Part shown: in pieces, positions 20,572-62,143 of the stretch
Position numbering within the stretch: position 1 is the first letter of the stretch
Layout: the number at the start of each line of letters is the position of its first letter
From: a virus
Taxonomy: Duplodnaviria > Heunggongvirae > Uroviricota > Caudoviricetes
Strand: one strand, 5' to 3'
Length of the DNA: 64,000 bases
IMG/VR virus record: IMGVR_UViG_3300010355_000975
Notes under the pieces: model-generated
What the model was told of the DNA's origin: nothing
Seen by the model: only the letters and a program-made list of their open reading frames with translations
Databases searched by the model: none
Program-made: the position numbers and the translations under genes

Positions 20572-21143
20572 TCGATTATCAAAAAATAAGTAATAGTGTT
20601 AATTTTTATAATCACTACGGGTTTATTCCTGTGGAAGTTCCTTGGATTGTGAATAAAAAGATTATAAATATTACATTACCATATAAACGGTCGCCAATAA
20701 TGTTAAATAATAATAAGAGCTGTTTAGTTGGATCGGCAGAACAATCTTTTTTAAAATTATTACACAATAAACGATTAAAAAAAGGACATTATCAAGCTAT
20801 TACGCCATGCTTTAGAGATGAGCAGGAAGATGCTTTGCATAAAAAATATTTTATTAAAAATGAGTTGATTGCTACGAAAGATGTTAATATTAAAAATTTA
20901 CAAAAAATTATAAAAATAGCTTATGAATTTTTTAATCAATATATTTCTAATTTATCGGTTATTCAAACAGATGCTCCAAAAATAGCAAAGTGTAATTTTG
21001 ATATTATGTATGATAATATCGAATTGGGGTCATATGGAATTAGAAATTATCAAGGATTAAAATGGATTTATGCAACTGGCTGTGCAGAACCTAGATTGTC
21101 AAGTGCAATGCAATATTATTTACAGAAAGAAAATAAATGTTAA
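20568..21143 (+). CDS. minimal class II aminoacyl-tRNA-synthetase-like catalytic core (AspRS/AsnA-type), no anticodon-binding domain
   Basis: Motif 1-like 'GFIPVEVPWIV', motif 2-like 'YQAITPCFRDEQED' (cf. AspRS YQI.KCFRDED), possible motif 3 'GCAEPRLSSAM'. Only 191 aa. Confidence 0.45.
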   Translation: MIDYQKISNSVNFYNHYGFIPVEVPWIVNKKIINITLPYKRSPIMLNNNKSCLVGSAEQSFLKLLHNKRLKKGHYQAITPCFRDEQEDALHKKYFIKNELIATKDVNIKNLQKIIKIAYEFFNQYISNLSVIQTDAPKIAKCNFDIMYDNIELGSYGIRNYQGLKWIYATGCAEPRLSSAMQYYLQKENKC

Positions 21144-23020: not shown

Positions 23021-23450
23021 TTTCCAGTTTCCTTGCTTTGTCCCGTATAATAAACCAGCCATTGAAATTTATGTTGCGGGATGTTTGGGCACTTGTCATA
23101 ATTGCCATAATCCTCAATTACACAATTTTAATTTAGGTAAGCCATTTGATTATGGATGCCTTGGTTATTTAAAAGAAAGAGAAGATTTATTTGAAGCAAT
23201 AGGTTTTTTAGGAGGCGAATTTTTAGATCAGAATTTAAGTGAATTTAAATCTGTTGCGAAATTATTAAGAAACATTTTTAAAACAAAAGAATTTTGGCTA
23301 TTTACACGGTATGAAATTGAGGAAATACCCGAATGGTGTAAGGAAGTATTTGATTATATTAAAGTCGGTAAATATATAGAAGAATTAAAACAGGAGGGAT
23401 TTCCTGCAAGTAGTAATCAAAAATTATTGAAAAAAGGAGTAAATTACTAA
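23007..23450 (+). CDS. nrdG: anaerobic RNR activating protein (radical SAM)
   Basis: 'GCLGTCHNCHNPQ' CxxxCxxC cluster. Immediately downstream of nrdD with overlap. Confidence 0.7.
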   Translation: MNIANFQFPCFVPYNKPAIEIYVAGCLGTCHNCHNPQLHNFNLGKPFDYGCLGYLKEREDLFEAIGFLGGEFLDQNLSEFKSVAKLLRNIFKTKEFWLFTRYEIEEIPEWCKEVFDYIKVGKYIEELKQEGFPASSNQKLLKKGVNY

Positions 23451-32542: not shown

Positions 32543-33532
32543 ATGGCTAAGAAAGAAAAAGAAATAATTGATTCTGTTTTAGATTCTACTCTTAAAGAAC
32601 TCGAAAAAAGCTATGGAAAGGGAATTATTACTAATCTTGAAGATGATGAAAGTTTACAAATAGATAAAGTATCTTGTGGGCACATGGCATTAGATAAAGC
32701 GTTGGGCGGTGGAATTCCAAGAGGAAGAATTTTGGAATTTTATGGTGCAAACAGTTCAGGCAAATCTACATTGGCTTTATCTGTAATAAGAGAGTTTCAA
32801 TTACTTGGGGAAAATGTTGTTTATTTGGATGCAGAATACGCTTTTGATAAAGATTATGCTCAAAAAAATGGTGTAGATAATGCTAAACTTATTTTTTGTC
32901 AGCCTGAATACACTGAACAAGGATTGGATATTGTTGAAAAGTTTGTTGAAAGTGGCAATGTTGGATTAATTGTTGTTGATTCTATTGCCGCCATGTCACC
33001 AAAGGCTGAAATTGAGGGCGAGGCCGGTGATTCACATATGGGTTTACAAGCACGTTTAATGAGTCAAGCATTTCGTCGTTTAACTGGAAAAATTCATAAA
33101 TCAAATACTACCGTTATCTTTATTAATCAGACAAGAAAGAACATTGGTGTTATGTGGGGAAGTCCTATCACTACTACGTCAGGGGAAGCCTTGAAGTTTT
33201 ATAGTTCAATCAGAGTCGAATTAGCAAAAACAGGAATGAATAAAAAGGGGGACGTAGTATTAGCTACAACAGTTAGAGCAAAAATAGTTAAAAATAAAGT
33301 TGCCGCACCTTATAAGGAAGCAATGTTTGAAATCTATTTCGATTCTGGGATTTGCAAGATCACAGATTTAGTTAATGCGGCTATTGAAAAAGAAATTATT
33401 AAAAAGAGTGGTGCATGGTTTTCTTATGAAGGAAACAACATTTCTCAAGGATTAGAGAATTTGAGAGATTTATTGAAAGAGAATAAAGAATTATTTAAAA
33501 AGATTAAAAAAGAAGTATTGGAGAAAAAATAG
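32543..33532 (+). CDS. recA: RecA recombinase
   Basis: Walker A 'GANSSGKSTLAL' and 'VVDSIAAM'. Length 329 aa. Confidence 0.85.
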   Translation: MAKKEKEIIDSVLDSTLKELEKSYGKGIITNLEDDESLQIDKVSCGHMALDKALGGGIPRGRILEFYGANSSGKSTLALSVIREFQLLGENVVYLDAEYAFDKDYAQKNGVDNAKLIFCQPEYTEQGLDIVEKFVESGNVGLIVVDSIAAMSPKAEIEGEAGDSHMGLQARLMSQAFRRLTGKIHKSNTTVIFINQTRKNIGVMWGSPITTTSGEALKFYSSIRVELAKTGMNKKGDVVLATTVRAKIVKNKVAAPYKEAMFEIYFDSGICKITDLVNAAIEKEIIKKSGAWFSYEGNNISQGLENLRDLLKENKELFKKIKKEVLEKK

Positions 33533-41695: not shown

Positions 41696-41881
41696 ATGAT
41701 TGATGTACGAGTAGAATCAAGCAGAAATAAAGAAGAGCAGGATAAATTATTTGATAAAGCAGTTCGCCAATTTAAAAAATTATGTAATTCTGATGGTTTT
41801 TTAAAAGAAATCCAAGATAGACGGTATTATAGTAAACCATCGGAAAAACGCCGAATGAAACAACGCCTTAATAAGGAATAA
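41696..41881 (+). CDS. rpsU: ribosomal protein bS21 homolog
   Basis: 'FDKAVRQFKKLCNSDGFLKEIQDRRYYSKPSEKRRMK' aligns to bacterial S21 '[29 protein letters not shown]'. Confidence 0.75.
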   Translation: MIDVRVESSRNKEEQDKLFDKAVRQFKKLCNSDGFLKEIQDRRYYSKPSEKRRMKQRLNKE

Positions 41882-48883: not shown

Positions 48884-49288
48884 ATGAAGTCTTTAAAAAT
48901 TTGGGGAATAGTAAATACTTTATTTGAATCTGATCATTGTAAAATTGACCACTTATATATTCGTAAAGATACTGCATGTAGTTTGCATTATCATAATAAA
49001 AAGTTTAATAGATTCATTTTACTAAAAGGAAATGTTCATATTATTACTGATTTAGGCGATTATCAATTAAAATTAGATGAGCCATTTGATATTGAACCAG
49101 CAATTATTCATCAATTTAGAGCATTTCAAAATAGTTTTGTATTAGAAATAGCATATACTATAAAAGAACCTTTAGAAGAAAATGATATTATTCGGATTAA
49201 ACAAGGTGGCGAATTTATTGATGGTAAATTCTTTACATTGGATGAATTAAAAAACCAAAAGTTAAAAAACTATAATGATTATGAATAA
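48884..49288 (+). CDS. cupin-fold protein (possible sugar isomerase/epimerase-like)
   Basis: 134 aa. 'SLHYHNKKFNRFILLKGNVHI' has a two-His cupin-like motif. Confidence 0.35.
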   Translation: MKSLKIWGIVNTLFESDHCKIDHLYIRKDTACSLHYHNKKFNRFILLKGNVHIITDLGDYQLKLDEPFDIEPAIIHQFRAFQNSFVLEIAYTIKEPLEENDIIRIKQGGEFIDGKFFTLDELKNQKLKNYNDYE

Positions 49289-49715
49289 ACAGATAAAGGT
49301 AATGACTATTGGCGTGTATGATCTATTACATAGAGGTCATATTATATATTTAAATTTGGCAAAATCATTGGGCGATAAATTAATAGTTGGTATAATGAGT
49401 GATCAATTTACTAAAAAACAAAAAAAACATGCGCCTATTCAGAACCAAAAAGATAGACGTTTTGCAGTACAAAATCTAAAATGTGTTGATGAAACATTTA
49501 TTTATACAAAGTCAGATTATTTAAAATATTTTAAAAACTTTAATGCAGACATTTTTTATTTAACATATGAATGTAAGAATGATCCTCGATTTAATCCATT
49601 GCTTAATTATATTGAAAAAACCAATAAAAAAATGGTATATGTAAAAATTTCAAAAAGTTTTAAACAAAAATATTCAAGTTCTTTAATTAAAAAACGAATT
49701 CAAGGAATAAAATGA
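49275..49715 (+). CDS. TagD-like cytidylyltransferase (glycerol-3-phosphate cytidylyltransferase family)
   Basis: 'TIGVYDLLHRGH' (GxFDxxHxGH). 'IMSDQFTKKQKK...NLKCVDE' parallels TagD 'ISTDEFNLQKQKK...RYVDEV'. Confidence 0.6.
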   Translation: MIMNKQIKVMTIGVYDLLHRGHIIYLNLAKSLGDKLIVGIMSDQFTKKQKKHAPIQNQKDRRFAVQNLKCVDETFIYTKSDYLKYFKNFNADIFYLTYECKNDPRFNPLLNYIEKTNKKMVYVKISKSFKQKYSSSLIKKRIQGIK

Positions 49716-50086
49716 AATTAATAAAAATAAGCGAGTTAAAACCAATTGAAGGGCATAGTAAGAAACGTGTTAATTGGCTTAAAAATAAGATTATTAAAGA
49801 ACAAATTTGGACAAAACCGATTTGTATTGAACAAAAATATAATATTGTTTTAGATGGTATGCATCGGTTCGAAGTTGCTAAATTATTAAAAATGAAATAT
49901 ATTCCTTGTGAATTGTTTGATTATAACGATGTTAAAGTTTGGAGTTTAAGGTCAAATCATATTATTACTGCAAGTATTGTGATTGAAAAAATTAAACAAG
50001 GATATATTTATCCTTTTAAAACTGTTAAGCATGATTTTTTATCAATCATTAAGTTATGTAATATACCATTAAAAGAGTTATTATAA
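49712..50086 (+). CDS. ParB/sulfiredoxin-like nuclease-domain protein
   Basis: 'IKISELKPIEGH...PICIE...VLDGMHRFEVAKLLKMKYIPCEL' resembles the ParBc/Srx fold consensus. Confidence 0.4.
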   Translation: MKLIKISELKPIEGHSKKRVNWLKNKIIKEQIWTKPICIEQKYNIVLDGMHRFEVAKLLKMKYIPCELFDYNDVKVWSLRSNHIITASIVIEKIKQGYIYPFKTVKHDFLSIIKLCNIPLKELL

Positions 50087-51294
50087 TGAATTTTAGAGCT
50101 GTTACTTTAGGATTCACGCCTTCAACATCTAAACAAAATGATTTAGATAATATTTATTCTTTTTTTACTAAATTCCATTCTATTTTCCCCAATTATTATA
50201 TTCATACCAAAAGACTAACTGTGCCAACAATTCGCCTTGAGCATATTCTTTCGTCACAAATCAATGATTGTTATTCTCAAATTTTTGAACTTTGTAACCG
50301 AAGTAATATCCGATGGTTTTGTTTACCATTTATACCAACTAAAAGCACAAGTAATAACGATTATAATCAATTATTGCATATATGTTTAAAAGAAAAAGTA
50401 TTTATTAATTTGTTGGCAACACATAATAATAATAGTATTTTATGTGATAAGATTCCTTTAATGAGCGAGTTTATAAAAAATGCTAGTAAAATATCAAGTA
50501 ATGGTTATCAAAATTTTAAAATAGGTGTGTCTTGTAATTGTTCTTCAAATTTCCCATTTTTTCCTTTTTCATATCATGGACATACTCAAAATGGGTTTTC
50601 ATTGGCATTAGAATTGATCCCATTATTTATTAATACAATAAAACAATATCCAAATAGTAGTTTATTAAAAATTAAAGAAATATTGATTAAAAATCTATCA
50701 TCAGAATTATTGACAATAAATACTTTAGCTAAACAAATTGAACAAGATACTGGATTCTCTTATTTTGGCGTTGATGCGGCAATAGCACCATTTCCAAATA
50801 AAGAGCACAGTATTATGAATATATTTTCCTTATTAGACACTAAAGCATTTGGTGATTATAGCACATTGTTTTTAACATCATTCTTAACGGATATTATAAA
50901 AACGTCGATTAAACAGACGAAAATACAAAGCATTGGATTTAATGGTGTAATGTTTTCAATATTAGAAGATAATGGCTTGGCAGAAAGTGATTCTAATTTA
51001 TTTTCAATTGATTCATTAATGCTTTATTCTTCAGTGTGTGGATGTGGTATAGATATGGTTCCTGTTCCTGAAAATATTTCTATAAATGAAATTGGGAAAA
51101 TAATTTTAGATGTATCTGCTTTATCAATTGTATTAAAAAAACCGTTGGGCGTTAGATTATTACCAATACCAAATAAACAAGCACATGAAGTAACTAATAT
51201 AAACCACGATTTTATTTGTAATAGTTATATTAAAAATATTAAAAATGGGTGTAATAATAAACGGATTTTTCAAAATGTCTATAAATACTTTTGA
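50086..51294 (+). CDS. DUF711/UPF0210 family protein
   Basis: 'NFRAVTLGF' start. C-terminal 'GFNGVMFSILEDNGLAE...LMLYSSVCGCGIDMVPVPEN...ALSIVLKKPLGVRLLPIP' parallels UPF0210 'GGLSGAFIPVSEDEGM...AICSVGLDMIAIPED...IGVINMKTTAVRIIP'. Confidence 0.5.
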   Translation: MNFRAVTLGFTPSTSKQNDLDNIYSFFTKFHSIFPNYYIHTKRLTVPTIRLEHILSSQINDCYSQIFELCNRSNIRWFCLPFIPTKSTSNNDYNQLLHICLKEKVFINLLATHNNNSILCDKIPLMSEFIKNASKISSNGYQNFKIGVSCNCSSNFPFFPFSYHGHTQNGFSLALELIPLFINTIKQYPNSSLLKIKEILIKNLSSELLTINTLAKQIEQDTGFSYFGVDAAIAPFPNKEHSIMNIFSLLDTKAFGDYSTLFLTSFLTDIIKTSIKQTKIQSIGFNGVMFSILEDNGLAESDSNLFSIDSLMLYSSVCGCGIDMVPVPENISINEIGKIILDVSALSIVLKKPLGVRLLPIPNKQAHEVTNINHDFICNSYIKNIKNGCNNKRIFQNVYKYF

Positions 51295-51973
51295 AGTAAA
51301 AAAATTTTGGTTACAGAGATCAAAAGAACAACTACCAATGGATTCATTGAGCTGTTTAGAAAATAATCCATTTTTGGTTAAAATAAAATTGTTTTTAGAA
51401 TCACAAAAAATTCGTAAATACATACAAGATTTAAAAGGAATACATTGTTTAGATTTAGGTTCTGGTACTGGATATTGGAGCCGGGTTTTAAGTCAGTATT
51501 TTCAACATATTGATTCGGTTGAGTATATTAAAAATTTTATTAATTTATCACAAAACGAAGATAAGAAACAAAAAATTAACAATATAAAATATTATAATCA
51601 AAGTGTGAATAATTTTAGGTCAGTTAAAAAATACGATATGATTTTTATATCAGGATTATTTATTTATTTGACGGATTATCAGATTGTTAATTTATTTATT
51701 CAAATAATAAAATATTCGAAAAAAGGAACATATATTATTTTGCGAGATGGAACAAGCATATTGCCTCATCAATATGAATTCAACTCTAAATATTCACATT
51801 TATTAAACAGTAAATATAGTGCTATATATCGAACACGCCAAGAATATTTACATATTTTTGAGCAATATGGATTTAAATTAATAAAAGATGAAGATATGTT
51901 TACTAATAATATATTATTAAATAAATTCCGTGAAAAAAAATTAAGAATCTATCTATTCCAAAGGACAAAATAA
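51275..51973 (+). CDS. class I SAM-dependent methyltransferase
   Basis: Motif I 'CLDLGSGTGYW'. Confidence 0.55.
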   Translation: MSINTFEVKKFWLQRSKEQLPMDSLSCLENNPFLVKIKLFLESQKIRKYIQDLKGIHCLDLGSGTGYWSRVLSQYFQHIDSVEYIKNFINLSQNEDKKQKINNIKYYNQSVNNFRSVKKYDMIFISGLFIYLTDYQIVNLFIQIIKYSKKGTYIILRDGTSILPHQYEFNSKYSHLLNSKYSAIYRTRQEYLHIFEQYGFKLIKDEDMFTNNILLNKFREKKLRIYLFQRTK

Positions 51974-52536
51974 TGAGTCTATTACCAATTGATTTTAAAA
52001 AATATCAAAATGAATACGCAATTGAATGCAAAGCAATTCAGGAATATTTTCGGATAAATTTTAATGTTCCAGTCTTTTTAGTTTATGGAACATTATTAGG
52101 ATGCGTTCAAAGTCAATCCTTTATTTCTTTTGATGATGATATTGATTTATCTTATATGAGTAATAAACATACTGCTCAAGAAGTTGTTCAAGAAATGAAA
52201 ATGTTTTATGAAAAATTAAATGCAGATGGCTTATTGGCCCATATTAAAAATCATACTGGTCAAGCATGGGTTTATAGTCCAAGTAAAAATATAATGGTTG
52301 ATATGTGGACATCATGGACAGATGCGAATAATAAATTTTATTGTGTTAATTGGGTAGATGGCTGTTTTCACAAAGATAGTGTTGTACCGTTTGCAATTGG
52401 TAAATTAGCAAATGAAAAATTTTTTATTCCAAAACAACATGCCCAACTTTTACAATATTGGTATGGAGATTGGAAAACGCCTCAACCACGAAAAAAGCAC
52501 ATGAGAATGTCGTATTATTTACCAAAGGAAAAATAA
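51973..52536 (+). CDS. LicD-family phosphotransferase
   Basis: 'VYGTLLGCVQSQSFISFDDDIDL' matches LicD 'YGTLLGAVRH.GFIPWDDDID'. Confidence 0.6.
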   Translation: MSLLPIDFKKYQNEYAIECKAIQEYFRINFNVPVFLVYGTLLGCVQSQSFISFDDDIDLSYMSNKHTAQEVVQEMKMFYEKLNADGLLAHIKNHTGQAWVYSPSKNIMVDMWTSWTDANNKFYCVNWVDGCFHKDSVVPFAIGKLANEKFFIPKQHAQLLQYWYGDWKTPQPRKKHMRMSYYLPKEK

Positions 52537-53117
52537 TGAAACCAACACCGCAATCCCTATGGGGAATTAATTCGGATATTTCTTGGCAATGGCATTTAAA
52601 TTTTATCGGACAATACCAACAACATAATTATTATTTATATTATGTGATCGATAGAATTATGAGCCAAAATAATCAGATTACTAAAATTATTGAATTAGGC
52701 ACAGGATATGGTGCATTAACAATAGTACTTGGATTATGGGGTATTAAAAGAAATATTCCAGTATATACAGTTGATATTAGACCCAACAAAATTGACCCAA
52801 TTAAATCTGTTTTAGATTGTTTAAAAGTTACTATTTTAGAAAAAGATATTTATAGTGAGGAAACCACTAAAGATTTACAAACAATTATTGGAAATGAACC
52901 TGTTTTAATGGTTTGTGATGGTTTAGATAAAAGCATAGAACTGAATACATGGGTTCCTTTACTACCAAATAATAGCATTGTTTGCGGACATGATTATAGA
53001 ACAGAATGTATTCCTGAAAAAATTAAAGACATTACTGATAAACATTGTATTCCATTTGAAGAAGAGAATTGGGAAAAATTAAATGTCCAATTAGTTGTTT
53101 ACAAAAAGGTAAAATAA
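52536..53117 (+). CDS. class I SAM-dependent methyltransferase (CmcI/rhamnosyl-O-MTase-like)
   Basis: 'IIELGTGYGALT' motif I preceded by a W-rich segment. Confidence 0.45.
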   Translation: MKPTPQSLWGINSDISWQWHLNFIGQYQQHNYYLYYVIDRIMSQNNQITKIIELGTGYGALTIVLGLWGIKRNIPVYTVDIRPNKIDPIKSVLDCLKVTILEKDIYSEETTKDLQTIIGNEPVLMVCDGLDKSIELNTWVPLLPNNSIVCGHDYRTECIPEKIKDITDKHCIPFEEENWEKLNVQLVVYKKVK

Positions 53118-53707
53118 TGCCAGCAATCGATATTATAAAACATCTTATTAAACAATCGGGTATTGGATTAGGTAGTGGCGAACAATGCTATGATGCCATG
53201 TATACAATAGCTAGATCATTTCAAATTCAATCACTTGTTGAAATTGGTACATATAAAGCATATTCTACAATTGTATTTTGCCAAGCAATTTTAGATAATA
53301 AACAAACACCAACAATTTACACAACAGATCAATGGAATAATTATGGATTAGATATTGGTGTAGTTGAACCGGTGGCTAGAAAACATATTACTCAAATGAA
53401 TTTTGATCAATACATTAATGTGATTAAAGGGGATTCTGCTAAGACAATTCCTGAATTATTTAAATCAATTGGTAAAGTAGATATGTGTTTTATTGATGGA
53501 GATCATACATTAAACGGGGTTCAAACAGATTTTAATAATTGTAAGGATTATACTGATATTATTTTATTTCACGATGCATTATGTGGAAAGGATGTTAAAG
53601 AATTTCTTACAACAATTAAAGGGTGGACAATTATTACTTTTCCTACAAAATATATTGAGGGGGATAACCGGGATTTAGGAATTGCATTGGCGGTGAAAAA
53701 TATATGA
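53117..53707 (+). CDS. class I SAM-dependent O-methyltransferase (family 3-like)
   Basis: 'LVEIGTYKAYSTI' and 'CFIDGDHT'. Confidence 0.55.
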   Translation: MPAIDIIKHLIKQSGIGLGSGEQCYDAMYTIARSFQIQSLVEIGTYKAYSTIVFCQAILDNKQTPTIYTTDQWNNYGLDIGVVEPVARKHITQMNFDQYINVIKGDSAKTIPELFKSIGKVDMCFIDGDHTLNGVQTDFNNCKDYTDIILFHDALCGKDVKEFLTTIKGWTIITFPTKYIEGDNRDLGIALAVKNI

Positions 53708-54705
53708 AAATCTTAATAAAAACATTCTATGGCACATATGAATATTTTCAAAATAATCGATTCGAATCACATTGTAGTACCTATTATACTTTATTGTTTA
53801 GAGAAATTTTTCGTAGATTAGGACATACATGTGATTTATTTGGAAAAGTTGCTATACCTAATGAAATAGTAAATGATTATAGTGGTTATGATATGATTTT
53901 ATTTTGGGGATTAGAATCATTTCTTTTTGATCTTGAATTTTCTAAAGGCGTGTTGCAACATTTTAAAGGCAAAAAATGTTTATACATTACTGCACAAATC
54001 ACACATTCATTGATTCATTTATTTGATTATATTTTTCCATGTGAAGTACCACAATATCAATTATTTTATGAAAAACAATACCCAACGGCAAAAACACGAT
54101 TAGTTAATTTTGCATCACCCCTTTATGATTTTGTAGATTCGGACACAATTAATCCATATAATGATACCTTATTTAAAACAATTTATACAGGAATTATTAC
54201 TGGACGATCTAAACAAATATTAAATGAATTAGCTGAAAGAGAAATCAATTTATATATTGGCGGCATTTATGCGCCTCCTGATGGTAGTTCATGCCGGCAT
54301 GTATCGCTAACTGAAATGCAAAATGAATTTAGCCAAAAAATACATTGGCTTACTAATACAGGCAATTTTCCTTATGGTTCACATTTTAAATATTTAAAAT
54401 ACGCTGATGTTGGACTAAATTTTTACCCAACACCCTATTTAACTTCAATCCCAATTAATAGTAAAATAATTGATTATCTTGTGTGTGGGCTTCCTATTGT
54501 TAGTGAAAATGCTTCACCAAATAATTTTAGAATTACTGATTTAAATGCTGGTGAAATTGTTCAATGGTATAACATTGACGAAATATATAATGCAATTCAA
54601 AAAATCAAAACATCATCTATGAATCGTAATCAAATTAAACAATCGGCCAGACAAATCTTTGATCCATTATCAATTGGTCAAACTATTTTACAGGAGATAA
54701 AATAA
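53704..54705 (+). CDS. putative glycosyltransferase (GT-B-like C-terminal half)
   Basis: 'KIIDYLVCGLPIVSEN' resembles the GT1/GT4 C-terminal donor-binding region. Otherwise novel. Confidence 0.3.
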   Translation: MKILIKTFYGTYEYFQNNRFESHCSTYYTLLFREIFRRLGHTCDLFGKVAIPNEIVNDYSGYDMILFWGLESFLFDLEFSKGVLQHFKGKKCLYITAQITHSLIHLFDYIFPCEVPQYQLFYEKQYPTAKTRLVNFASPLYDFVDSDTINPYNDTLFKTIYTGIITGRSKQILNELAEREINLYIGGIYAPPDGSSCRHVSLTEMQNEFSQKIHWLTNTGNFPYGSHFKYLKYADVGLNFYPTPYLTSIPINSKIIDYLVCGLPIVSENASPNNFRITDLNAGEIVQWYNIDEIYNAIQKIKTSSMNRNQIKQSARQIFDPLSIGQTILQEIK

Positions 54706-55259
54706 TGCCTACTTCTCATTGGTCATACATTACCAAGATTGTTAATGTTATTAAATTAAAAAATCCACAATCTATGCTAGAGATTGGATTAGGCTTTGGC
54801 AAATACGGCGTTCTAGCTAGAGAATACCTAGAAGTTTATGGTGCAAATCGATGGCAAAAAAAAGAATGGAAAGTTCAGATTGATGGCGTAGAAATTTATA
54901 CACCTTATATTACTGAACAAATTAAGCATTATTATAATACTATTTATAATGATGATATTGTCAAATTATTCAAAGAAAATAAACTAGGTAATTATGATCT
55001 AATTTTAATGACTGATGTATTAGAGCATTTGAATAAAGAAGATGGAAAGTTTGTTTTTGATCAAATTTTATCTCATTCAAAAACTGCTATATTTGCTGTT
55101 CCATTAGGCGATTGGCGATATACTTTTGATGGAGATAATAAAAATGAATCGCATATTTCAGTATGGGAGTATAAGGAATTTATTCATAAATCTTTAAAAG
55201 ATAGTAAAACTTATCCTGTATCAGGCAAAAAAATTGGGGTATTTATTTATGAAAATTAA
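54705..55259 (+). CDS. class I SAM-dependent methyltransferase
   Basis: 'MLEIGLGFGKYG' and 'ILMTDVLEHL'. Confidence 0.6.
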   Translation: MPTSHWSYITKIVNVIKLKNPQSMLEIGLGFGKYGVLAREYLEVYGANRWQKKEWKVQIDGVEIYTPYITEQIKHYYNTIYNDDIVKLFKENKLGNYDLILMTDVLEHLNKEDGKFVFDQILSHSKTAIFAVPLGDWRYTFDGDNKNESHISVWEYKEFIHKSLKDSKTYPVSGKKIGVFIYEN

Positions 55260-56214
55260 TGACTTAACAGTATTTATTATCACTACTGGTAAAAACATTA
55301 ATTATCCAGATTGTATTAAAGCATTACAGAAGCAATCTTTCTCATTTAAAGTGGATATTATTAGAGAGTATTCGCCTTTATCAGTTGCTTTTCAAGAAAT
55401 GCTAAATAGATGTACTACGAAGTATTTTATCCAAGTTGATGAAGATATGGTATTGCAACCAAATGCCATTGAAACATTATATAATAGTATTAAAAATCAA
55501 TCACAGTATAGCATGATTTGTTATTCATTAAATGATGTACATTATGGTATTGATATATTAGGAATTAAAATATATGACCATGATATTTTTAAACAATTTC
55601 CTTATAATACCACGCATCCAAGTTGTGAAGTAGAACAATTAGAACGAGTAACCAATGCAGGATATAAATGGCTATCTTATTCAAATGTAGTTGGGCAACA
55701 CTCACCAAAATGGACAAGTGAGGAGATTTTTAATCGTTACAATGTATTAGTCAAAAAACAAAAATTATTAGCTGGCACATGCGGATTTGGTAACATTCAG
55801 CAAACATTAGTAAATAGATTAAAAAATAAATTTAGTTCATTAGATTTTTTTGCCTTACTAGGAGCTAACTCTGCTTTAACATCACCCGCCTTTAATTCTG
55901 AAAAAAATTATAAAAAAACCAATCCTGATTATTTACATTATGAACAGTCATATTCTGATTTACTTATAGAATATAAACCATTGAATATTTTATTTCTATA
56001 TGATGTTGACGGATGGGTGTTTGATTTTGAAACTAGAGCATACAAACAATTTAGCTCACACAACATTATTAGAAAAAAATTTAATACCATTGGCGATTCA
56101 ATTACAAAAAATGATTTAAAAGATATAGATATTTTACTTATTCCCGGAAGTTGTCACTATAAGCATTTAAATGATTTAGGAATAATTAAATTTGCTAAAC
56201 AACAGAAAATTTAA
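55249..56214 (+). CDS. family 2 glycosyltransferase (3' end truncated by tandem duplication)
   Basis: 'LTVFIITTGKN...QKQS' and 'QVDEDM' (DxD-like). Confidence 0.5.
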   Translation: MKINDLTVFIITTGKNINYPDCIKALQKQSFSFKVDIIREYSPLSVAFQEMLNRCTTKYFIQVDEDMVLQPNAIETLYNSIKNQSQYSMICYSLNDVHYGIDILGIKIYDHDIFKQFPYNTTHPSCEVEQLERVTNAGYKWLSYSNVVGQHSPKWTSEEIFNRYNVLVKKQKLLAGTCGFGNIQQTLVNRLKNKFSSLDFFALLGANSALTSPAFNSEKNYKKTNPDYLHYEQSYSDLLIEYKPLNILFLYDVDGWVFDFETRAYKQFSSHNIIRKKFNTIGDSITKNDLKDIDILLIPGSCHYKHLNDLGIIKFAKQQKI

Positions 56215-56328
56215 TACCATTACAAAAAATGATTTAAAAGATATAGATATTTTACTTATTCCCGGAAGTTGTCACTATAAGCATTTAAATGATTTAGGAA
56301 TAATTAAATTTGCTAAACAACAGAATAT
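56081..56328 (+). repeat. tandem direct duplication (130-bp copy + 118-bp copy) at the GT2/GT4 gene junction
   Basis: 56081-56210 matches 56211-56328 except for a 12-bp indel (ggcgattcaatt) and a few mismatches. Confidence 0.85.
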
Positions 56329-58285
56329 TAAAATAGTTGTTCAATATAATTCAGAAATTGAATTAGATTTGCCAAATTATATAACCAACTGTGATTTAGC
56401 AGTAGCTAGTTCGCCAGATATTTATGCTAGATTAAATGGCGATCAAAAAAATTTACAATTCATTCCCCATTTTATTGATACTCATTATTGGGAAGATACA
56501 TCAGATACTAATACATTTAAAATAGGATGGGTTGGAAACCCCGAATGTAAAGTCAAAAACTTTGATCTTTTAAAAGAATTAAATTTTCCTGTTCAAATCC
56601 AAAGTAATTATGGAAAAAAATTTTTTAAAGTAAATCGTACATTACAAGAAATGAAGGACTTTTATAAAGAGATAGGAATACTTTTAATTTTAAGTGAATC
56701 AGAAGGTACTCCAATGCCTCTCTTGGAAAGTGCGGCATCTGGTAAAGTTGTTATTTCCACCAATACAGGATTAGCTACTGAATTATTATCTCCTGAATTT
56801 ATTATTGATAAACAAAAAAATATTGTTGAACAAGTTAATAGTATTTTAGAAGATTTAAAAAATAATCCTGAAAAAATAATTACTATTGGCAAAGAAAATA
56901 GAAAAAAAGTTGTTCAAAAAAACGATTGGTTTACAAATGTTTTATGGCTTGATAATGTCTATACTCAATTATTCAATAAATCTACTAAAAAAATTAAAGT
57001 TGTCCAATTAGCAAGAGTTCCTTGTGCTAATTCAGGTTATTATTTAAGTCAATTATTAAACGAATATTCTACTGAATTTGAATCTCGTTATATTCTTGGT
57101 TCAGATTATTCTGGTAAACGCCCTGATATTGTACCATTTAGAAAATTTCCAACTGATTTATCTTGGCAAACTCAAAAAGAAGAATGTATTAAAGTGATTC
57201 AAGAAGCAGATATTGTTCATATCCATCATGGATTTTGGGGAGATACAAAAGAAATTCAAGATTTACTAAAAGACAAAAAGGTTATTACAACTATTTATGA
57301 TTTATCTTTAGAAAATAATACGGGATATTATAATAGAAAAAATCAAATTTCAACCTTACTTACTGTTGCAGATCAGCCAGCCCAAAAGCGAGTTTTTTCA
57401 AAATGGTCAACTACTTATGTACCATTAGTTAATTGTTTATTTAATGAAACCATTATAAAAAATAATCCAGAACCAGTAATTGTTTATGCTCCAACAAATA
57501 GATACCCTATCACTAATTCAAGCTCTAAAGGATATAATGAAGTATTAAAAATTATTAATAATTTAAAAAAACAAGGATTAAAATTTACTTTTGATTTAAT
57601 TGAAGGCGTTCCACACGAAGAAGATTTGAATAGAAAAAGAAAAGCGGATATTATTATTGATGATGTAATCAACAATACTTTTCATAACACGTCGATTTAC
57701 GGGGCTTGCTTTGGAGCAATTGCTATTACAGGACATTCTAGCAAAGAATACCCTTTTATTTATGCTAATTTAAATACTTTAGAAGAAACATTAAAATACT
57801 ATATTACTAATCCAGAAATTCTTAAAAAAGAACAAGAAAAATTAACACAATGGAGAACAACAATTTATACTCCACAAAATCTTTTAGCATCTTATGAAAA
57901 TTTATATCATAATACTTTAACACTCACAAAGAAAACAGAAATTGTTCAGCCATTAATGAATGCACAAGAAGTGTTGCTTGATTTAATAAAGATTTGCCAA
58001 AAGAATAATTGCCCCATTTGTTTATTACAGAAAACTTGTTATGAAATTGTTAATTGCCAAAAAATAATTACTAATAAATTATGGATTGGAATTAATTTAA
58101 CTGATAAGATTAAACAAGTGCTACTGAATAATAAATACCAATGCTTAAATGATTTATGGATTAAAGATAAAATTTCGATTCATTTTTTGCCTTATCCAAA
58201 TAAAACAAAAAAATGGCCTATTCGGGGATTAGTGACAAACGTTCCTTACCCAGTGGTAGGATATTTAAAACAAAGATGGCATTAA
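56192..58285 (+). CDS. family 4 (GT-B) glycosyltransferase, no ATG at its 5' end
   Basis: 'ESEGTPMPLLESAASGKVVISTNTG' (GT4 E-x7-E region). The ORF begins inside duplicated sequence, and its first in-frame ATG is ~150 codons in. Confidence 0.55.
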   Translation: MLNNRKFNTITKNDLKDIDILLIPGSCHYKHLNDLGIIKFAKQQNIKIVVQYNSEIELDLPNYITNCDLAVASSPDIYARLNGDQKNLQFIPHFIDTHYWEDTSDTNTFKIGWVGNPECKVKNFDLLKELNFPVQIQSNYGKKFFKVNRTLQEMKDFYKEIGILLILSESEGTPMPLLESAASGKVVISTNTGLATELLSPEFIIDKQKNIVEQVNSILEDLKNNPEKIITIGKENRKKVVQKNDWFTNVLWLDNVYTQLFNKSTKKIKVVQLARVPCANSGYYLSQLLNEYSTEFESRYILGSDYSGKRPDIVPFRKFPTDLSWQTQKEECIKVIQEADIVHIHHGFWGDTKEIQDLLKDKKVITTIYDLSLENNTGYYNRKNQISTLLTVADQPAQKRVFSKWSTTYVPLVNCLFNETIIKNNPEPVIVYAPTNRYPITNSSSKGYNEVLKIINNLKKQGLKFTFDLIEGVPHEEDLNRKRKADIIIDDVINNTFHNTSIYGACFGAIAITGHSSKEYPFIYANLNTLEETLKYYITNPEILKKEQEKLTQWRTTIYTPQNLLASYENLYHNTLTLTKKTEIVQPLMNAQEVLLDLIKICQKNNCPICLLQKTCYEIVNCQKIITNKLWIGINLTDKIKQVLLNNKYQCLNDLWIKDKISIHFLPYPNKTKKWPIRGLVTNVPYPVVGYLKQRWH

Positions 58286-58287
58286 TT

Positions 58288-59016
58288 ATGTGTAAAATTG
58301 GATTTATTATAACTACATTTGAAAGAGATGATTTATTAAAGCATACGGTTAATGCTTTGCGCCAATTTAAATTACCTAATTGGGAAATTATTATAGTTGA
58401 CCAATCCCCTTCTGAAGAAAAAATACATCTGTATTCTGATTGTAATTATACATCCATTCCTCACAATTCTGGTTTATCTTTTGCAAGAAATCAAGGTGTG
58501 AAAATAGCTAATCAAATAGAATGTTCTTATTGTGTTATTATGGCAGATAGTATTTGCCCATTATTTGATTGTATAAAAATTAATGCTTTACTTCCTTCTT
58601 TAGAAACTTATGATTATATTGGATTAAATTTAATTAATCGAAATCAAGAAAGTTATTGGATTGGCAAAATTAATTTAATACCAGAAAAAGGATTTGAATT
58701 AGAAAAAATTATTGTGCCAGAAGATGGACAAATTCATCCAGTTGAAATAATTAAAAATTTTTTTATTGCTAAAACATCAACTCTATTAACTCATCAATGG
58801 GATGAAAAATTATTATTGGCTGAACATGAAGATTATTTTTGGCGAGCGAAATTATTAAATTATAAAATAGGATTTATTAAATTAAATGTGGGCAAATACA
58901 TTGGAAAAGAAATAACCAATTTAGAATACAAAAAACTTCGTAAACAAAATTGGAATCAAAGTTTAAAATTACTTAAACAAAAATACAGTATAAAAGGATG
59001 GGTAATTTATAAATGA
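58288..59016 (+). CDS. family 2 glycosyltransferase
   Basis: 'IGFIITTFERDDLL...IIIVDQSP'. Start could be 58279 instead. Confidence 0.5.
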   Translation: MCKIGFIITTFERDDLLKHTVNALRQFKLPNWEIIIVDQSPSEEKIHLYSDCNYTSIPHNSGLSFARNQGVKIANQIECSYCVIMADSICPLFDCIKINALLPSLETYDYIGLNLINRNQESYWIGKINLIPEKGFELEKIIVPEDGQIHPVEIIKNFFIAKTSTLLTHQWDEKLLLAEHEDYFWRAKLLNYKIGFIKLNVGKYIGKEITNLEYKKLRKQNWNQSLKLLKQKYSIKGWVIYK

Positions 59017-59423
59017 TTTTACATGGTTCAATTATGTTAAATAATGCTGGCAAATTCAATGAATTTGTTAAAGATAACGCTATTGTATTACAAAAATACT
59101 TTGGCGTTTTTTTATTTCCCGGATCAATTAATGTAATGATTAAAGATTTTCCTAATCTACATTCTTTTTTAGATACTAAATTATTACCTGATTTTATTAT
59201 TCCTAAAGAAGAATTAATCAACATGCCTTCTTATTTAGGCAATGGACAAGCATGGAGATGTCAATTAATTAATGAAAAATGGGGTAAAATTGATGCATGG
59301 GTATTTAGACGAATTAATTCTAAAGTAAGAAAAAATAGTTTAGAAATTGTTTCAGATAAAGAACTTAATAAACCTTATAATTTGTCAAATAATGACGAAG
59401 TTCTCATTACTATTGACAAATAA
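59013..59423 (+). CDS. hypothetical protein
   Basis: ORF coupled to the preceding gene. Confidence 0.4.
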   Translation: MILHGSIMLNNAGKFNEFVKDNAIVLQKYFGVFLFPGSINVMIKDFPNLHSFLDTKLLPDFIIPKEELINMPSYLGNGQAWRCQLINEKWGKIDAWVFRRINSKVRKNSLEIVSDKELNKPYNLSNNDEVLITIDK

Positions 59424-59624: not shown

Positions 59625-59683
59625 AAAGATCGTTGAACCTTGCCCTATTTCTACTTGATTTAGAGGCATTTTTGGAGGGTATA
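59625..59683 (+). repeat. copy C of post-stop-codon element (AAAGATCGTTGAACCTTGCCCTATTTCTACTTGATTTAGAGGCATTTTTGGAGGG)
   Basis: Shares ATTTCT(G/A)CTTGATTTAGAGG(T/C)ATT with copy A. Its 3' end supplies the GGAGGG RBS for the MTase gene. Confidence 0.5.
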
Positions 59684-60232
59684 ATGACCGAAGAACTAAT
59701 TCCATTTCCTGATAAAAAATACCAAATTATTTATGCTGATCCGCCTTGGAGTTATCAAGATAAAGCATTAGCCGGAAACCGAGGCGCAATGTGTAAATAC
59801 CAAACTCAAGAAAAAGAATGGATAGATAATTTGCCTGTTTCAAAAATTGCTGATACTAATTGTGTATTATTCTTATGGGTAACAATGCCAAAACTCAATG
59901 AATGTTGGGATTTAATAAACAAATGGGGATTTAATTATAAAACTGTTGCTTTTACATGGATAAAGAAAAATAAAAAAACAAATTCTTGGTTTTGGGGAAT
60001 GGGAAGCTGGACAAGAGCAAATGCTGAATTATGCTTATTGGCAACTAAAGGACACCCAAAAAGAATAAACGCTGGAATTCATTCAATTATAGACACACCT
60101 ATTGAACAACATAGCAAAAAACCCGATGAAGTCCGAACCAGAATTGTTAAATTAATGGGCGATTTGCCAAGAATCGAATTATTTGCTAGAGAAAAAACTG
60201 AAGGATGGGACGTTTGGGGTAATGAAGTATAA
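59684..60232 (+). CDS. MT-A70-family DNA N6-adenine methyltransferase
   Basis: 'YQIIYADPPWSY', 'VLFLWVT', 'WGFNYKTVAFTWIK', 'WGMGSWTRANAELCLLATKG'. Confidence 0.7.
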   Translation: MTEELIPFPDKKYQIIYADPPWSYQDKALAGNRGAMCKYQTQEKEWIDNLPVSKIADTNCVLFLWVTMPKLNECWDLINKWGFNYKTVAFTWIKKNKKTNSWFWGMGSWTRANAELCLLATKGHPKRINAGIHSIIDTPIEQHSKKPDEVRTRIVKLMGDLPRIELFAREKTEGWDVWGNEV

Positions 60233-60838: not shown

Positions 60839-62143
60839 ATGTTTCAACGTTCGATAGCAATTCTAGAAGAATTTACTTGGCAAAAACCAGTAATAGATAA
60901 AGATTTAAATACACCGCCTGTTAGTCCCACAAAAGGGGATAGATACATTGTTGGAACAGATCCAACAGGAGATTGGAGCGGACATGCTGGTGATATAACC
61001 CTATACACTAATTCAGGATGGGTATTTATTACGAAACAAGCCGGAATGTATTTATATGTAATAGATGAAGCAAAATTGTATAAATACATATCATCTTGGT
61101 CTGAATTTGTTTCTGCTGATAATTTAGATAATTATGCTACTAAAGCATCATTAGAAACTGCTCAAACCAATATTATGTTAAATGCTTTTCGTTTAGCCAC
61201 TCTCGGTTCATTAACTCTTTTAAACATGGTTGACTCAATTGTAGATGAATTTGAGGATGAAAGTGGTGTAGATACAGATAATTCTATTAATGAAGTATAT
61301 AATTCATCAAATGATTATTATACGCCAGATTATGCCAGTGGTGAAGAAACGAATTTAATAACTTGTGTAAATAATACAAGCACAACGAGCCTCGGAAATA
61401 ATGGCGGAAAGGAATATAGACAAGCACAAAAAATTGTACTTACTGAAGCACGTGCTTTCACAAGTGTTGAAGTACAATTTTCAAAAAAAATTGGTTCTCC
61501 TTCTGGCGATGTTACTTGTAGAATTGAAACAGATAGTAGTGGCCCATCTAATACATTAGCTAACGCAAATGCTACAAAAAATTTGAATCCAACAGATAGT
61601 GCTTGGAATAAATTTACATTCGATACATCTTTTATATTACCGGCAGGAACGTATTGGATTACTTTACGATGTAGTAATCAATCGACTAATAATTATTGGG
61701 TTATTTATTATAGTACACAAGGAACTTATGCCAGTGGAAATGCGTATATTTCAACCAATGGTGGAACAACATGGTCTGATAATTTATATGATATGACTTT
61801 TAAATTAAATGGTTATGTTCCACAAAAAGCCAATATGACCTTACTTTCAAATTCTTTTACAGCAGAAAATCAACCTGATTCAGCACGAATTATTTTATTT
61901 GAAGAGAATGTAGATTCTATTACATTAAATACTGATATAAAAGCATATGTATCAAGAGATGACGGTTCCTCTTGGGAAGAAGCTGTTTTGACCGATGAAG
62001 GATTTATAGATTCAACAAAACATATATTATCCGCTACATTAGATATATCAGAACAATCAGAAGATACTGATATGCGGTGGGAAATAAAAACTTTTAATAA
62101 TAAAGATTTAAAAATACATGGAGTAGGCTTATCTTGGGCCTAA
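60839..62143 (+). CDS. tail-fibre-like structural protein with DUF2793-like N-terminal domain
   Basis: 'W..PVIDKDLNTPPVSPTKGDRYIVG...GDWSGHAGDITLYTNSGWVF' matches the DUF2793 pattern. S/T/N-rich remainder. Confidence 0.4.
   Translation: MFQRSIAILEEFTWQKPVIDKDLNTPPVSPTKGDRYIVGTDPTGDWSGHAGDITLYTNSGWVFITKQAGMYLYVIDEAKLYKYISSWSEFVSADNLDNYATKASLETAQTNIMLNAFRLATLGSLTLLNMVDSIVDEFEDESGVDTDNSINEVYNSSNDYYTPDYASGEETNLITCVNNTSTTSLGNNGGKEYRQAQKIVLTEARAFTSVEVQFSKKIGSPSGDVTCRIETDSSGPSNTLANANATKNLNPTDSAWNKFTFDTSFILPAGTYWITLRCSNQSTNNYWVIYYSTQGTYASGNAYISTNGGTTWSDNLYDMTFKLNGYVPQKANMTLLSNSFTAENQPDSARIILFEENVDSITLNTDIKAYVSRDDGSSWEEAVLTDEGFIDSTKHILSATLDISEQSEDTDMRWEIKTFNNKDLKIHGVGLSWA

Follow-up and report, generated by a model that had tools for sequence, protein, structure and literature searches.

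Why should a protein with a ParB/sulfiredoxin (ParB/Srx) fold and a protein of the orphan family DUF711 be encoded side by side in the glycan cluster of a phage, between a cytidylyltransferase and a methyltransferase (MT)? The window (the whole stretch of DNA analysed, 64,000 nucleotides) is AT-rich phage DNA, and an earlier note on it had proposed that the two proteins take part in an undescribed modification of a nucleotide-activated sugar or alcohol. With a probability of about 0.55, we take the gene pair to form the core of a widespread cassette, present here in a compact form that is carried by a phage; the cassette would make a nucleotide-activated phospho-head group that is attached to a glycan after glycosylation. 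An undescribed step is thereby supported, as part of this cassette, but the activated group is more likely to be a serine-derived, amino-acid-type head group than a sugar.

Gene layout of the phage locus

The genes of the locus, all on the same strand, are the following.

48884..49288, + strand: small cupin, similar to the C-terminal part of mannose-6-phosphate isomerase (PMI) (Pfam PF01050, 5.5e-6)
49275..49715, + strand: TagD/CCT-type cytidylyltransferase-like protein of the HxGH family (Pfam CTP_transf_like, 2.8e-16)
49712..50086, + strand: "mini" free-serine-kinase-like protein, ParB/Srx fold, SerK/SbnI clade (predicted small-molecule kinase)
50086..51294, + strand: DUF711 protein (PF05167) of a cassette-specific clade (Pfam, 5e-56)
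51245..51973, + strand: class I SAM methyltransferase, best match an alpha-N-methyltransferase family (Pfam PF05891, 6.1e-14, 52.5 bits)
51973..52536, + strand: LicD-family phosphotransferase (PF04991; Pfam LicD, 2.5e-7, 31.5 bits against a cut-off of 22.6)
52458..59423, + strand: remaining phage glycan cluster (Pfam matches)

Both members of the gene pair are present as open reading frames, of 124 aa (49712..50086, +) and 402 aa (50086..51294, +), and the start/stop overlaps described in the earlier note were confirmed. The cytidylyltransferase and 124-aa ORFs are joined at ATGA (49712-49715), the 124-aa and DUF711 ORFs at TAATG (50084-50088), and AGGA is located 8 nt 5′ of the start at 49712. 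The cytidylyltransferase also matches the glycerol-3-phosphate cytidylyltransferase (TagD) model NCBIfam TIGR01518 over nearly its full length (6e-14), and it fills the slot of the GlmU/LicC-type NTP_transferase (NTPa) of bacterial cassettes. The order of cytidylyltransferase, ParB-like gene and DUF711 was also found in the metagenome contig L092. Gene callers put the start of the MT at 51275. The LicD-family protein matches the NCBIfam Mf1 cholinephosphotransferase in the motif region only (1.3e-9). The cupin may be an accessory that only phage forms of the cassette have; a homologous cupin lies directly 5′ of the ParB-like gene in L139, a phage-like contig. Further downstream, 52458..59423 encodes three more MT-like ORFs, glycosyltransferases (GTs) of the GT4 and GT2 types and an ORF similar to CTP-dependent riboflavin kinase, and these genes are predicted to supply the acceptor glycan.

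The genes of the window phage recur in several metagenomes. A megablast search with window positions 44-58 kb returned no match among GenBank phages. In a tblastn search of GenBank phages, DUF711 gave weak partial matches only (23-30% identity over ~35-40% of the query), mostly to unannotated "Bacteriophage sp." fragments, none of which falls in the clade of the window DUF711. A search of plasmids for DUF711 found none.

The small kinase-like protein and the DUF711 barrel

The protein encoded by 49712..50086 does have the ParB/Srx fold ascribed to it, with an N-terminal ParB/sulfiredoxin alpha/beta part. Specifically, it is most likely a small-molecule kinase of the SerK/SbnI type, predicted to supply a phospho-substrate, and we call it mini-SerK. 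Free serine kinases of this type are SerK in Thermococcus kodakarensis (TK0378; PMC5120207) and SbnI in Staphylococcus aureus. Residues E13, D48, H51, R52, K103, T104, K106 and H107 are invariant in the mini-SerK family and align to SerK/SbnI motifs, the shared elements being a Glu, the DGxHR motif and a C-terminal KTx(K/R)H motif. E13 is aligned to the Glu (SerK E30, SbnI E20) and D48 to the Asp of DGxHR (SerK D69, SbnI D58), positions to which Nagata in 2017 and Verstraete in 2018 reportedly assigned a catalytic role. The overall structure corresponds to that of SerK/SbnI as well, including the C-terminal KTxRH segment. A relative with 37% identity, itself a mini-SerK, occupies the sbnI position of an sbnD-E-F-G-H-I-like siderophore cluster, which is Gram-negative and staphyloferrin-B-like.

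Mini-SerK (124 aa) is half as long as SerK and SbnI (242-254 aa). The two-domain architecture of SerK/SbnI (~240-255 aa) is absent, and so are an insertion of ~85 residues (SerK residues about 118-203) and the heme/regulatory part of SbnI. The protein shares 21-26% identity with SerK/SbnI and scores far below the NCBIfam equivalog cut-offs (32 bits against 350 for SbnI, 31 bits against 380 for SerK). Given this low identity and the missing insertion and second domain, the acceptor could be other than serine. The family is of roughly 870 clusters at 50% identity. In contrast to SerK and SbnI, its members lie within glycan clusters, and fusions to nucleotidyltransferases are frequent: many of the best family matches are 350-390 aa long with the kinase domain at the C-terminus, and the N-terminal partner of these long forms, judged from the genome loci, is a nucleotidyltransferase.

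The small protein might instead be an ordinary ParB partition or DNA-binding protein, a nuclease or a sulfiredoxin, adjacent to DUF711 by coincidence. This would agree with its weak PHROG matches to ParB-like partition proteins and nucleases (1e-5 to 1e-3), but is hardly credible on other grounds. A ParB CTPase DNA clamp was rejected: the protein has DGMHR where ParB has the GERRxR box, GERR is absent from 23 family members, and 124 aa hold neither an HTH nor a dimerisation domain. Sulfiredoxin was rejected likewise, as the Cys position of GCHR is Met, Gln or His and GCHR is found in no family member. Moreover, the protein resembles SerK/SbnI far more than it does ParB or Srx, and the synteny with DUF711 is kept in more than 100 loci, which speaks against a coincidental adjacency. 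The ordinary ParB/sulfiredoxin reading is effectively refuted.

The second protein (50086..51294) belongs to DUF711 as claimed; it passes the PF05167 gathering threshold and has the fold of SP0239 (PDB 2HA9), with which it shares 15% identity. Its placement in the Firmicutes UPF0210 family did not hold, for it lies outside that equivalog (PRK05313, partial match, 103 bits against 440). The window DUF711 is in a clade of its own, which is separate from Firmicutes UPF0210 and found mostly outside Firmicutes. It differs from the canonical UPF0210 protein SP0239 by an extra invariant second Cys (CGCG motif). The canonical DUF711 family adjoins a small ACT-domain partner. Unlike canonical Firmicutes and archaeal DUF711, the window clade has a cassette of kinase, nucleotidyltransferase and MT as its neighbourhood. 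Other DUF711 clades adjoin nonribosomal peptide synthetase (NRPS) genes and an L-amino-acid ligase, which is an amino-acid context.

The DUF711 fold is a minimal form of the ten-stranded barrel of ribonucleotide reductases (RNRs) and glycyl-radical enzymes, and the barrel interior holds invariant Arg/Lys, Asp/Glu and Cys-Gly-Cys. The glycyl-radical motif RVxG[FWY] is absent from the window DUF711 and from 25 of 27 aligned homologues (in the other two the match is an RTTGF inside the protein), and on this negative motif test a glycyl-radical identity was rejected for the window protein. Members of the family occur in aerobes, among them Pseudomonas, Pantoea and Prochlorococcus. Its length (~400 aa), the lack of a glycyl-radical motif or domain and the occurrence in aerobes suggest that DUF711 is presumably non-radical. 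RNRs bind nucleoside di- and triphosphates, and DUF711 is predicted to remodel the head group, possibly in its CDP-linked form.

Conservation of the cassette across genomes

The adjacency of the kinase-like gene and DUF711 is far beyond chance. Of 71 genome loci found from the DUF711 side, 65 have a kinase-like (ParB-like) gene as the neighbour of DUF711; the reverse search from the ParB-like side covered 48 metagenome loci, and in 44 of them DUF711 adjoins the kinase-like gene. Loci with the cassette are spread over numerous phyla of bacteria and archaea and occur in several phages as well. Their usual order is nucleotidyltransferase, kinase, a second nucleotidyltransferase-like protein (NTPb), DUF711 and MT. 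Among the 71 loci found from the DUF711 side, NTPa is present in 64, NTPb in 60 and MT in 51, and an orthologous MT is located 3′ of DUF711 in 51/71; some cassettes have no MT at all. A screen of 85 loci, of which 80 are distinct, found a racemase of the Asp/cysteate type in 42; as a rule its gene is the next one after the MT. Its best match, at or near the cut-off, is the cysteate racemase CuyB, the substrate of which is a 3-carbon acidic amino acid.

In many loci a CDP-alcohol-type phosphotransferase follows, which can be TagF-like, LicD, CDP-OH or LtaS-like. The same screen of 85 loci found TagF-like transferases in 41, and in bacteria these often form fusions with a second MT or a GT; LicD accompanies the cassette in loci L062, L064, L065, L112, L122, L145 and L160. 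All these transferases use phospho-alcohol donors, the donor being CDP-linked for TagF, LicD and CDP-OH_P_transf and a lipid for LtaS/EptA-like proteins. Fusions within the cassette are of four kinds: NTPa-ParB, NTPa-ParB-NTPb, DUF711-MT and MT-CDP-OH-transferase. The loci are set among Wzy, Wzx and GT genes, and in Pseudomonas mangrovi a flagellin gene is directly upstream. The earlier note had also tied the pair to sugar-nucleotide genes, and this linkage is well borne out: nucleotidyltransferase, MT and CDP-alcohol phosphotransferase are kept with the pair across phyla in polysaccharide and flagellin-glycan loci, and some are fused.

A few loci depart from this pattern. In L011 and L012, DUF711 genes of the same clade have a sugar-nucleotide dehydratase/epimerase and GTs as neighbours; there is no kinase or MT within 10 kb, and a search for an alternative kinase found only sugar-nucleotide enzymes and GTs. 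In L160, kinase-nucleotidyltransferase, MT and LicD are present without DUF711, so that the head group can apparently be made without it. A conventional decarboxylase was sought at L160 and not found. The phage cassette has neither the second NTP-transferase-like protein nor the racemase, and for this reason the phage and the bacteria may not make the same product.

Proposed pathway, alternatives and known systems

The product of the cassette is most likely a CDP-activated, methylated phospho-amino-acid-type group that decorates a glycan. We infer every step of the chemistry from genes, folds, synteny and fusions, which were observed. Mini-SerK would phosphorylate a small hydroxy-amino acid, likeliest L-serine, to O-phosphoserine, as suggested by its fold, its conserved motif residues and its relative at the SbnI position of the siderophore cluster. 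A kinase of the SerK/SbnI type most likely acts before the cytidylyltransferase and makes its phospho-substrate. The overlapping TagD/CCT-type cytidylyltransferase would then form a CDP conjugate, "CDP-serine", by analogy with CDP-threonine in the Fta pathway of Clostridioides difficile and in line with the kinase-nucleotidyltransferase fusions; CTP is the predicted nucleotide of either nucleotidyltransferase type. DUF711 would remodel the charged, CDP-linked intermediate, its slot after activation and before methylation being suggested by fusion and gene order only. The PF05891-like MT would N-methylate the intermediate, and LicD would move the phospho-head group onto the glycan made by the neighbouring GTs.

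A wider proposal can be put forward tentatively, and we would rather bet against it than for it: DUF711/UPF0210 may be a non-radical offshoot of the RNR/glycyl-radical barrel that binds a CDP-amino acid (CDP-serine or a derivative) and carries out a new transformation, and together with the mini serine kinases, a family not recognised before, it may define a second and widespread route by which bacteria, archaea and phages decorate glycans with phospho-amino-acid-type groups. If so, CDP-serine would have to be added to the known metabolites of the cell, and a function would be assigned for the first time to an orphan family that structural genomics brought to light in 2006.

The same genes could serve other chemistries. 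The kinase might make phosphoserine, DUF711 might decarboxylate phospho- or CDP-serine to (CDP-)ethanolamine, one or more MTs might convert this to (CDP-)choline, and LicD might add phosphocholine to the glycan. Such a route would be a soluble mirror of the conversion of PS to PE to PC, independent of external choline. It would fit the presence of LicD together with a cytidylyltransferase of the CCT/ECT/TagD family, the best match of the MT to an amine (alpha-N) MT family, the several further MTs of the phage cluster and the second MTs fused to the transferase in bacteria; CDP-OH and LtaS/EptA-like transferases also resemble transfer of the Kennedy and phosphoethanolamine types. We nevertheless regard it as unlikely. 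The adjoining racemase would have no obvious role if the stereocentre were destroyed, the MT is absent from some cassettes, and the DUF711 fold has no PLP or pyruvoyl precedent, while to our knowledge the known phosphoserine decarboxylases are PLP enzymes. A sugar or polyol, phosphorylated by the kinase, activated by the two nucleotidyltransferase-like proteins and then modified by DUF711 as an NDP-sugar (deoxygenation or isomerisation in an RNR-like pocket), is a rather improbable substrate. NTPa and NTPb do resemble sugar-1-phosphate nucleotidyltransferases; L011 and L012 combine DUF711 with NTP_transferase and GDP-mannose-dehydratase/epimerase-type genes in the absence of the kinase; and a PMI-like cupin is 5′ of the phage cassette, as are a PfkB sugar kinase and a cupin in L139. 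However, the kinase is a relative of SerK/SbnI by structure and sequence, and one protein with 37% identity to it belongs to a siderophore cluster for which phosphoserine is required. The cassette also includes a racemase for amino acids and an MT of the amine type, and the associated transferases are phospho-alcohol transferases rather than glycosyltransferases.

DUF711 might not be catalytic but an obligatory partner of the truncated kinase, with a substrate-binding or lid function, or a scaffold for kinase and nucleotidyltransferase. The absence of SerK residues about 118-203 from mini-SerK, the near-obligate pairing of kinase and DUF711, their translational coupling in the phage and, as a precedent for pathway complexes, the predicted FtaA-FtaB complex (bioRxiv 10.64898/2026.02.12.704994) are consistent with such a role. 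It is very unlikely all the same: the sbn-like cluster and L160 have mini-SerK but no DUF711, L011 and L012 have DUF711 but no kinase, the fusion partner of DUF711 is the MT and not the kinase, and the barrel holds enzyme-like invariant polar residues. We give still less credit to DNA hypermodification (modified or glycosylated bases) by the phage module in place of a surface or virion glycan. It is true that the cassette or kinase gene adjoins replication genes in three phage-like contigs (SbcCD in the window; clamp loader, PolA, dUTPase or RNR in L171 and L139) and that DNA-modification enzymes of phages often contain ParB-like domains (PHROG matches). Yet all homologous cassettes of bacteria and archaea are within polysaccharide or flagellin-glycan loci, the GT2/GT4-type transferases and LicD of the phage are typical of glycan assembly, and no base-hydroxymethylase was found among the ORFs checked in part of the window, three of which are a T4-type RNase H, one unknown and RecA.

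For the preferred pathway to a CDP-activated amino-acid-type group, the closest known system is the CDP-threonine pathway of C. difficile FtaABCD (CD0241-CD0244), which, like PA1088-PA1091 of Pseudomonas aeruginosa, modifies flagellin after glycosylation (PMC10714395; bioRxiv 10.64898/2026.02.12.704994; PMC11833859). FtaC N-methylates CDP-Thr, and the TagF-like FtaD then carries out the transfer (bioRxiv 10.64898/2026.02.12.704994; PMC10714395). The proposed logic is the same, from a phospho-amino acid to a CDP-amino acid, a SAM N-methyltransferase acting on the conjugate and a TagF-like transfer to the glycan. As in Fta, nucleotidyltransferase, SAM methyltransferase and CDP-alcohol-type phosphotransferase are in one glycan operon, and bacterial cassettes use TagF-like transferases, one of them directly beside a flagellin gene; the phage version, in contrast, has a CTP_transf_like (TagD/CCT-type) cytidylyltransferase and LicD. 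The phospho-donor step differs, with the ParB/Srx-fold mini-SerK in the cassette and the HAD/ThrH-like phosphotransferase FtaA in Fta; no HAD protein was found among the scanned neighbours. Fta has nothing that corresponds to DUF711, to the second NTP-transferase-like protein or to the racemase. The sequence of kinase, cytidylyltransferase, CDP-alcohol and LicD (or CDP-alcohol phosphotransferase) is also like that of LicABCD and the Kennedy pathway, whereas the cassette kinase has a ParB/Srx fold and LicA an APH fold. Pfam searches of the ORFs at 48.0-60.8 kb found no LicA choline kinase (APH fold), LicB transporter or LicC-type NTP_transferase. The additional DUF711 and MTs suggest that, unlike in LicABCD, the head group is synthesised and not taken up from outside.

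Searches of the literature found no functional study of DUF711, UPF0210 or CDP-serine and no description of the kinase-like/DUF711 cassette, and the terms nucleotidyltransferase, DUF711 and polysaccharide do not occur in the main text of a ParB-fold survey published in PNAS in 2025. DUF711/UPF0210 is a large orphan family whose structure was solved in 2006, and the cassette is its first testable biochemical context: one clade now has a place in a defined pathway whose substrates can be predicted, so that simple assays in vitro can test its function. The cassette also reveals a compact family of serine-kinase-like enzymes, and it suggests that CDP-amino-acid donors, hitherto known only from recent work on the flagellins of C. 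difficile and P. aeruginosa, have a far wider use. Candidate carriers of the decoration are O-antigens, capsules, flagellins and phage-directed glycans, and possibly lipids of archaea. Decorations of this kind on surfaces act as antigens and as determinants of phage receptors.

The paired proteins and their neighbours

Both open reading frames of the pair are present as the earlier note described them, at 49712..50086 (+, 124 aa) and 50086..51294 (+, 402 aa, the DUF711 protein), and the start/stop overlaps reported there are seen at both as ATGA and TAATG. On the 5′ side lies a TagD/CCT-type cytidylyltransferase-like ORF (Pfam, 2.8e-16). On the 3′ side are encoded a class I methyltransferase (MT), matched best by PF05891 (the alpha-N-methyltransferase family), and then a LicD-family transferase, with more methyltransferases and GT2 and GT4 glycosyltransferases beyond.

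The label "ParB/Srx-like" that had been given to the 124-aa protein is correct and can be sharpened to a half-size SerK/SbnI-type kinase core, here called mini-SerK. Its family-invariant residues, E13, D48-G-x-H51-R52 and K103-T-x-K106-H107, align to E30, D69GHHR73 and K221TTRH225 of SerK, and E13 and D48 correspond to E20 and D58 of SbnI; the aligned Glu and Asp are reportedly catalytic in the SerK and SbnI structural papers. Neither the ParB CTP box nor the sulfiredoxin cysteine is present in mini-SerK, and together with the motif match a SerK/SbnI-type kinase core is therefore predicted. An ordinary ParB or Srx protein is effectively excluded. Mini-SerK also lacks the SerK/SbnI insertion (~85 residues) and the second domain. 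A relative sharing 37% identity (E 1e-33) occupies the sbnI position within a Gram-negative staphyloferrin-B-like operon of MFS, two IucA/IucC synthetases, HpcH-type aldolase, PLP decarboxylase, mini-SerK and TonB receptor genes. The operon spans 315-9673 of contig L154 and is seen in L158 too, and the mini serine-kinase-like protein at its sbnI position is roughly 170 aa and without the SbnI C-terminal domain. This position provides independent contextual support for serine as the substrate of mini-SerK.

The DUF711 protein of the window is only 15% identical to SP0239, the canonical UPF0210 protein, fails the canonical UPF0210 NCBIfam equivalog, and falls in a clade of its own, sharing 35-45% identity with the other members. 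The glycyl-radical motif is absent from the protein and the clade is present in aerobes; thus, the protein is presumably non-radical. Invariant along the barrel strands are R4, R43, R76, K352, R357, E176, D230, E294, D295, D323 and D342, as well as a Cys318-Gly-Cys320-Gly motif, and we infer that the invariant barrel residues fit a highly charged, phosphate-bearing substrate. Distant DUF711 clades lie directly 3′ of multi-module NRPSs with a terminal thioester-reductase domain (L074, 268-10981; L078, 763-9933) or adjoin an ATP-grasp L-amino-acid ligase and alpha/beta hydrolases (L077, 8473-11107), pointing to amino-acid-type substrates and to natural-product roles that the family may have.

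A conserved cassette and its carriers

A pattern scan for the DUF711 clade returned 75 loci from 185,579 species genomes and 3 from IMG/VR, and the cassette proteins were used to search the six-frame ORFs of these loci. In 65 of 71 loci, DUF711 has a ParB-like gene within 3 kb on the same strand; of the six loci without one, three are on truncated contigs. Of the 71 DUF711 loci, 64 encode a GlmU/LicC-type nucleotidyltransferase (NTPa), 60 a second NTP-transferase-like protein (NTPb) and 51 MT. The reverse test began with ParB-like genes in metagenomes and recovered DUF711 in 44 of the 48 loci with sufficient flanks. The genes usually run NTPa, mini-SerK, NTPb, DUF711, MT. A protein of the Asp/Glu racemase family is encoded in 42 of 85 screened loci (80 distinct), mostly directly 3′ of MT; its top NCBIfam match is the cysteate racemase CuyB, at or just under the cut-off. 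Many cassettes also hold one of four types of phospho-alcohol transferase. In 41 loci this is a TagF-like Glyphos_transf that carries a fused second MT or GT25 domain; the other types are LicD, CDP-alcohol phosphatidyltransferases and LtaS/EptA-like proteins with a sulfatase fold.

The cassette steps are tied together by gene fusions. Many of the best representative mini-SerK matches are 350-390 aa long with the kinase domain C-terminal, and genome loci identify NTPa as the N-terminal partner. NTPa-mini-SerK-NTPb fusions occur in DPANN archaea, and DUF711-MT and MT-CDP-OH-transferase fusions are also seen. The window holds a compact variant (cupin, TagD/CCT-type cytidylyltransferase, mini-SerK, DUF711, MT, LicD), in which the cytidylyltransferase stands at the NTPa place and neither NTPb nor racemase is present. 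The cytidylyltransferase-kinase-DUF711 order is identical in metagenome contig L092.

Carriers include Planctomycetota, Pantoea, Cedecea, Yersinia, Pseudomonas, Xanthomonas, Agrobacterium, Roseovarius, Prochlorococcus, SAR86, Lachnospiraceae, Patescibacteria, Marine Group III and DPANN archaea. The neighbours are polysaccharide genes (Wzy, Wzx, GTs, sugar-nucleotide enzymes), and a flagellin gene is directly 5′ of the cassette in Pseudomonas mangrovi. Among phage-like contigs, L083-L085 and L171 bear the module, L171 (39-11983) with the full NTPa/kinase/NTPb/DUF711 set and a DegT aminotransferase; L139 (346-5698) has only a PfkB kinase, cupin and mini-SerK. In L171 and L139 these genes are directly 5′ of the clamp loader, family A DNA polymerase, dUTPase and intein-containing RNR. 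No member of the window's DUF711 clade was found among GenBank phage records.

The phage genome

The window is AT-rich (GC about 25-30%), with nearly all genes on one strand. PHROG/PDB matches include anaerobic RNR NrdD, primase, DNA polymerase exonuclease, SbcCD, T4-type RNase H and RecA. A gene for a tail-fibre-like protein comes 3′ of the glycan cluster; the window is therefore a large phage genome. Several contigs from metagenomes, up to 97 kb long, carry the same genes.

Further features of the window
21137-23450, +, anaerobic ribonucleotide reductase NrdD (PHROG, 1.4e-87), then a 147-aa ORF
32543-33532, +, full-length bacterial-type RecA (E 2e-98 against solved RecA proteins)
41696-41881, +, 61-aa ORF matching ribosomal protein S21 (Pfam Ribosomal_S21, match made with the identical gene in contig L088)
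42408-43664, 44309-45238, 46187-46882, +, SbcC-like ATPase parts (PHROG 77) and SbcD-like nuclease
59013-59423, +, last glycan-cluster ORF, CTP-dependent riboflavin kinase family match (PF01982, 1.5e-5, narrowly above the cut-off)
59633-60232, +, MT-A70-family (N6-adenine) methyltransferase (3e-30)
60839-62143, tail-fibre-like gene (DUF2793 and PHROG tail-fibre matches)

The presence of NrdD suggests an anaerobic host, and the 147-aa ORF may be the NrdD activase. RecA matches phage UvsX at an E of only 3e-15. The SbcC-like ATPase appears split over two ORFs (profile positions 296-703 for the N-terminal part and 744-946 for the C-terminal part), with the SbcD-like nuclease gene and several small ORFs between them. 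Judged by its family match, ORF 59013-59423 may encode another small-molecule kinase of the cluster, one that uses CTP. The MT-A70 gene separates the glycan cluster from the tail-fibre-like gene. At 12000-14200, GC is locally raised (0.36) together with a very strong GC skew (+0.5), and long ORFs on both strands overlap; the matches of the 361-aa ORF 13115-14200 are all fragmentary and spread over many unrelated PHROGs, pointing to a repetitive or low-complexity protein.

A proposed head-group route and its alternatives

Of the characterised systems, the nearest is the ftaABCD operon of C. difficile, with its P. aeruginosa counterpart PA1088-1091. There, the nucleotidyltransferase FtaB turns phosphothreonine into CDP-threonine, FtaC N-methylates the CDP conjugate, and TagF-like FtaD moves phospho-N-methylthreonine onto the flagellin sugar (PMC10714395; bioRxiv 10.64898/2026.02.12.704994). 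The phosphothreonine comes from a HAD/ThrH-like enzyme, whereas the cassette has a ParB-fold kinase instead; Fta has neither such a kinase nor DUF711, and the cassette has both. On this analogy and the fusion order, we propose five steps: mini-SerK would make a phospho-amino acid, most likely O-phosphoserine; the cytidylyltransferase would convert it into a CDP conjugate; DUF711 is predicted to alter this conjugate and MT to N-methylate the product; and LicD would put the head group onto the glycan. Where a racemase is present, it would fix the configuration of an acidic three-carbon amino acid, for example phosphoserine. Locus L160 has LicD, NTPa-mini-SerK and MT without DUF711, suggesting that DUF711 is a remodelling step outside activation.

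Alternatively, DUF711 could be the decarboxylase of a de novo route to phosphocholine or phosphoethanolamine. LicD, the CCT-type enzyme and the amine-type methyltransferases make this route attractive, but the conserved racemase and the DUF711 fold fit it poorly. The substrate could instead be a sugar or polyol, with DUF711 working on an NDP-sugar. In its favour, the nucleotidyltransferases are of sugar type, and two Phycisphaerae-type MAG loci (L011, 6206-12697; L012, 6174-12480) hold window-clade DUF711 amid GT4 glycosyltransferase genes and genes of the GDP-mannose-dehydratase/epimerase type, lacking any methyltransferase or kinase-like gene within 10 kb; the SerK/SbnI kinship of the kinase and the transferase types, however, speak against a sugar or polyol. 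Other rivals hold that DUF711 is a non-catalytic partner of the shortened kinase, or that the cassette serves DNA hypermodification in phages.

As a kind of system, CDP-activated phospho-head-group decoration is already known; the variant that pairs a DUF711 enzyme with a mini serine kinase was not previously known. Our literature search found no paper on DUF711/UPF0210 function, CDP-serine or the cassette, and the main text of a recent ParB-fold survey mentions neither nucleotidyltransferase nor DUF711. With the cassette, the function of the long-standing orphan family DUF711 is now directly testable.
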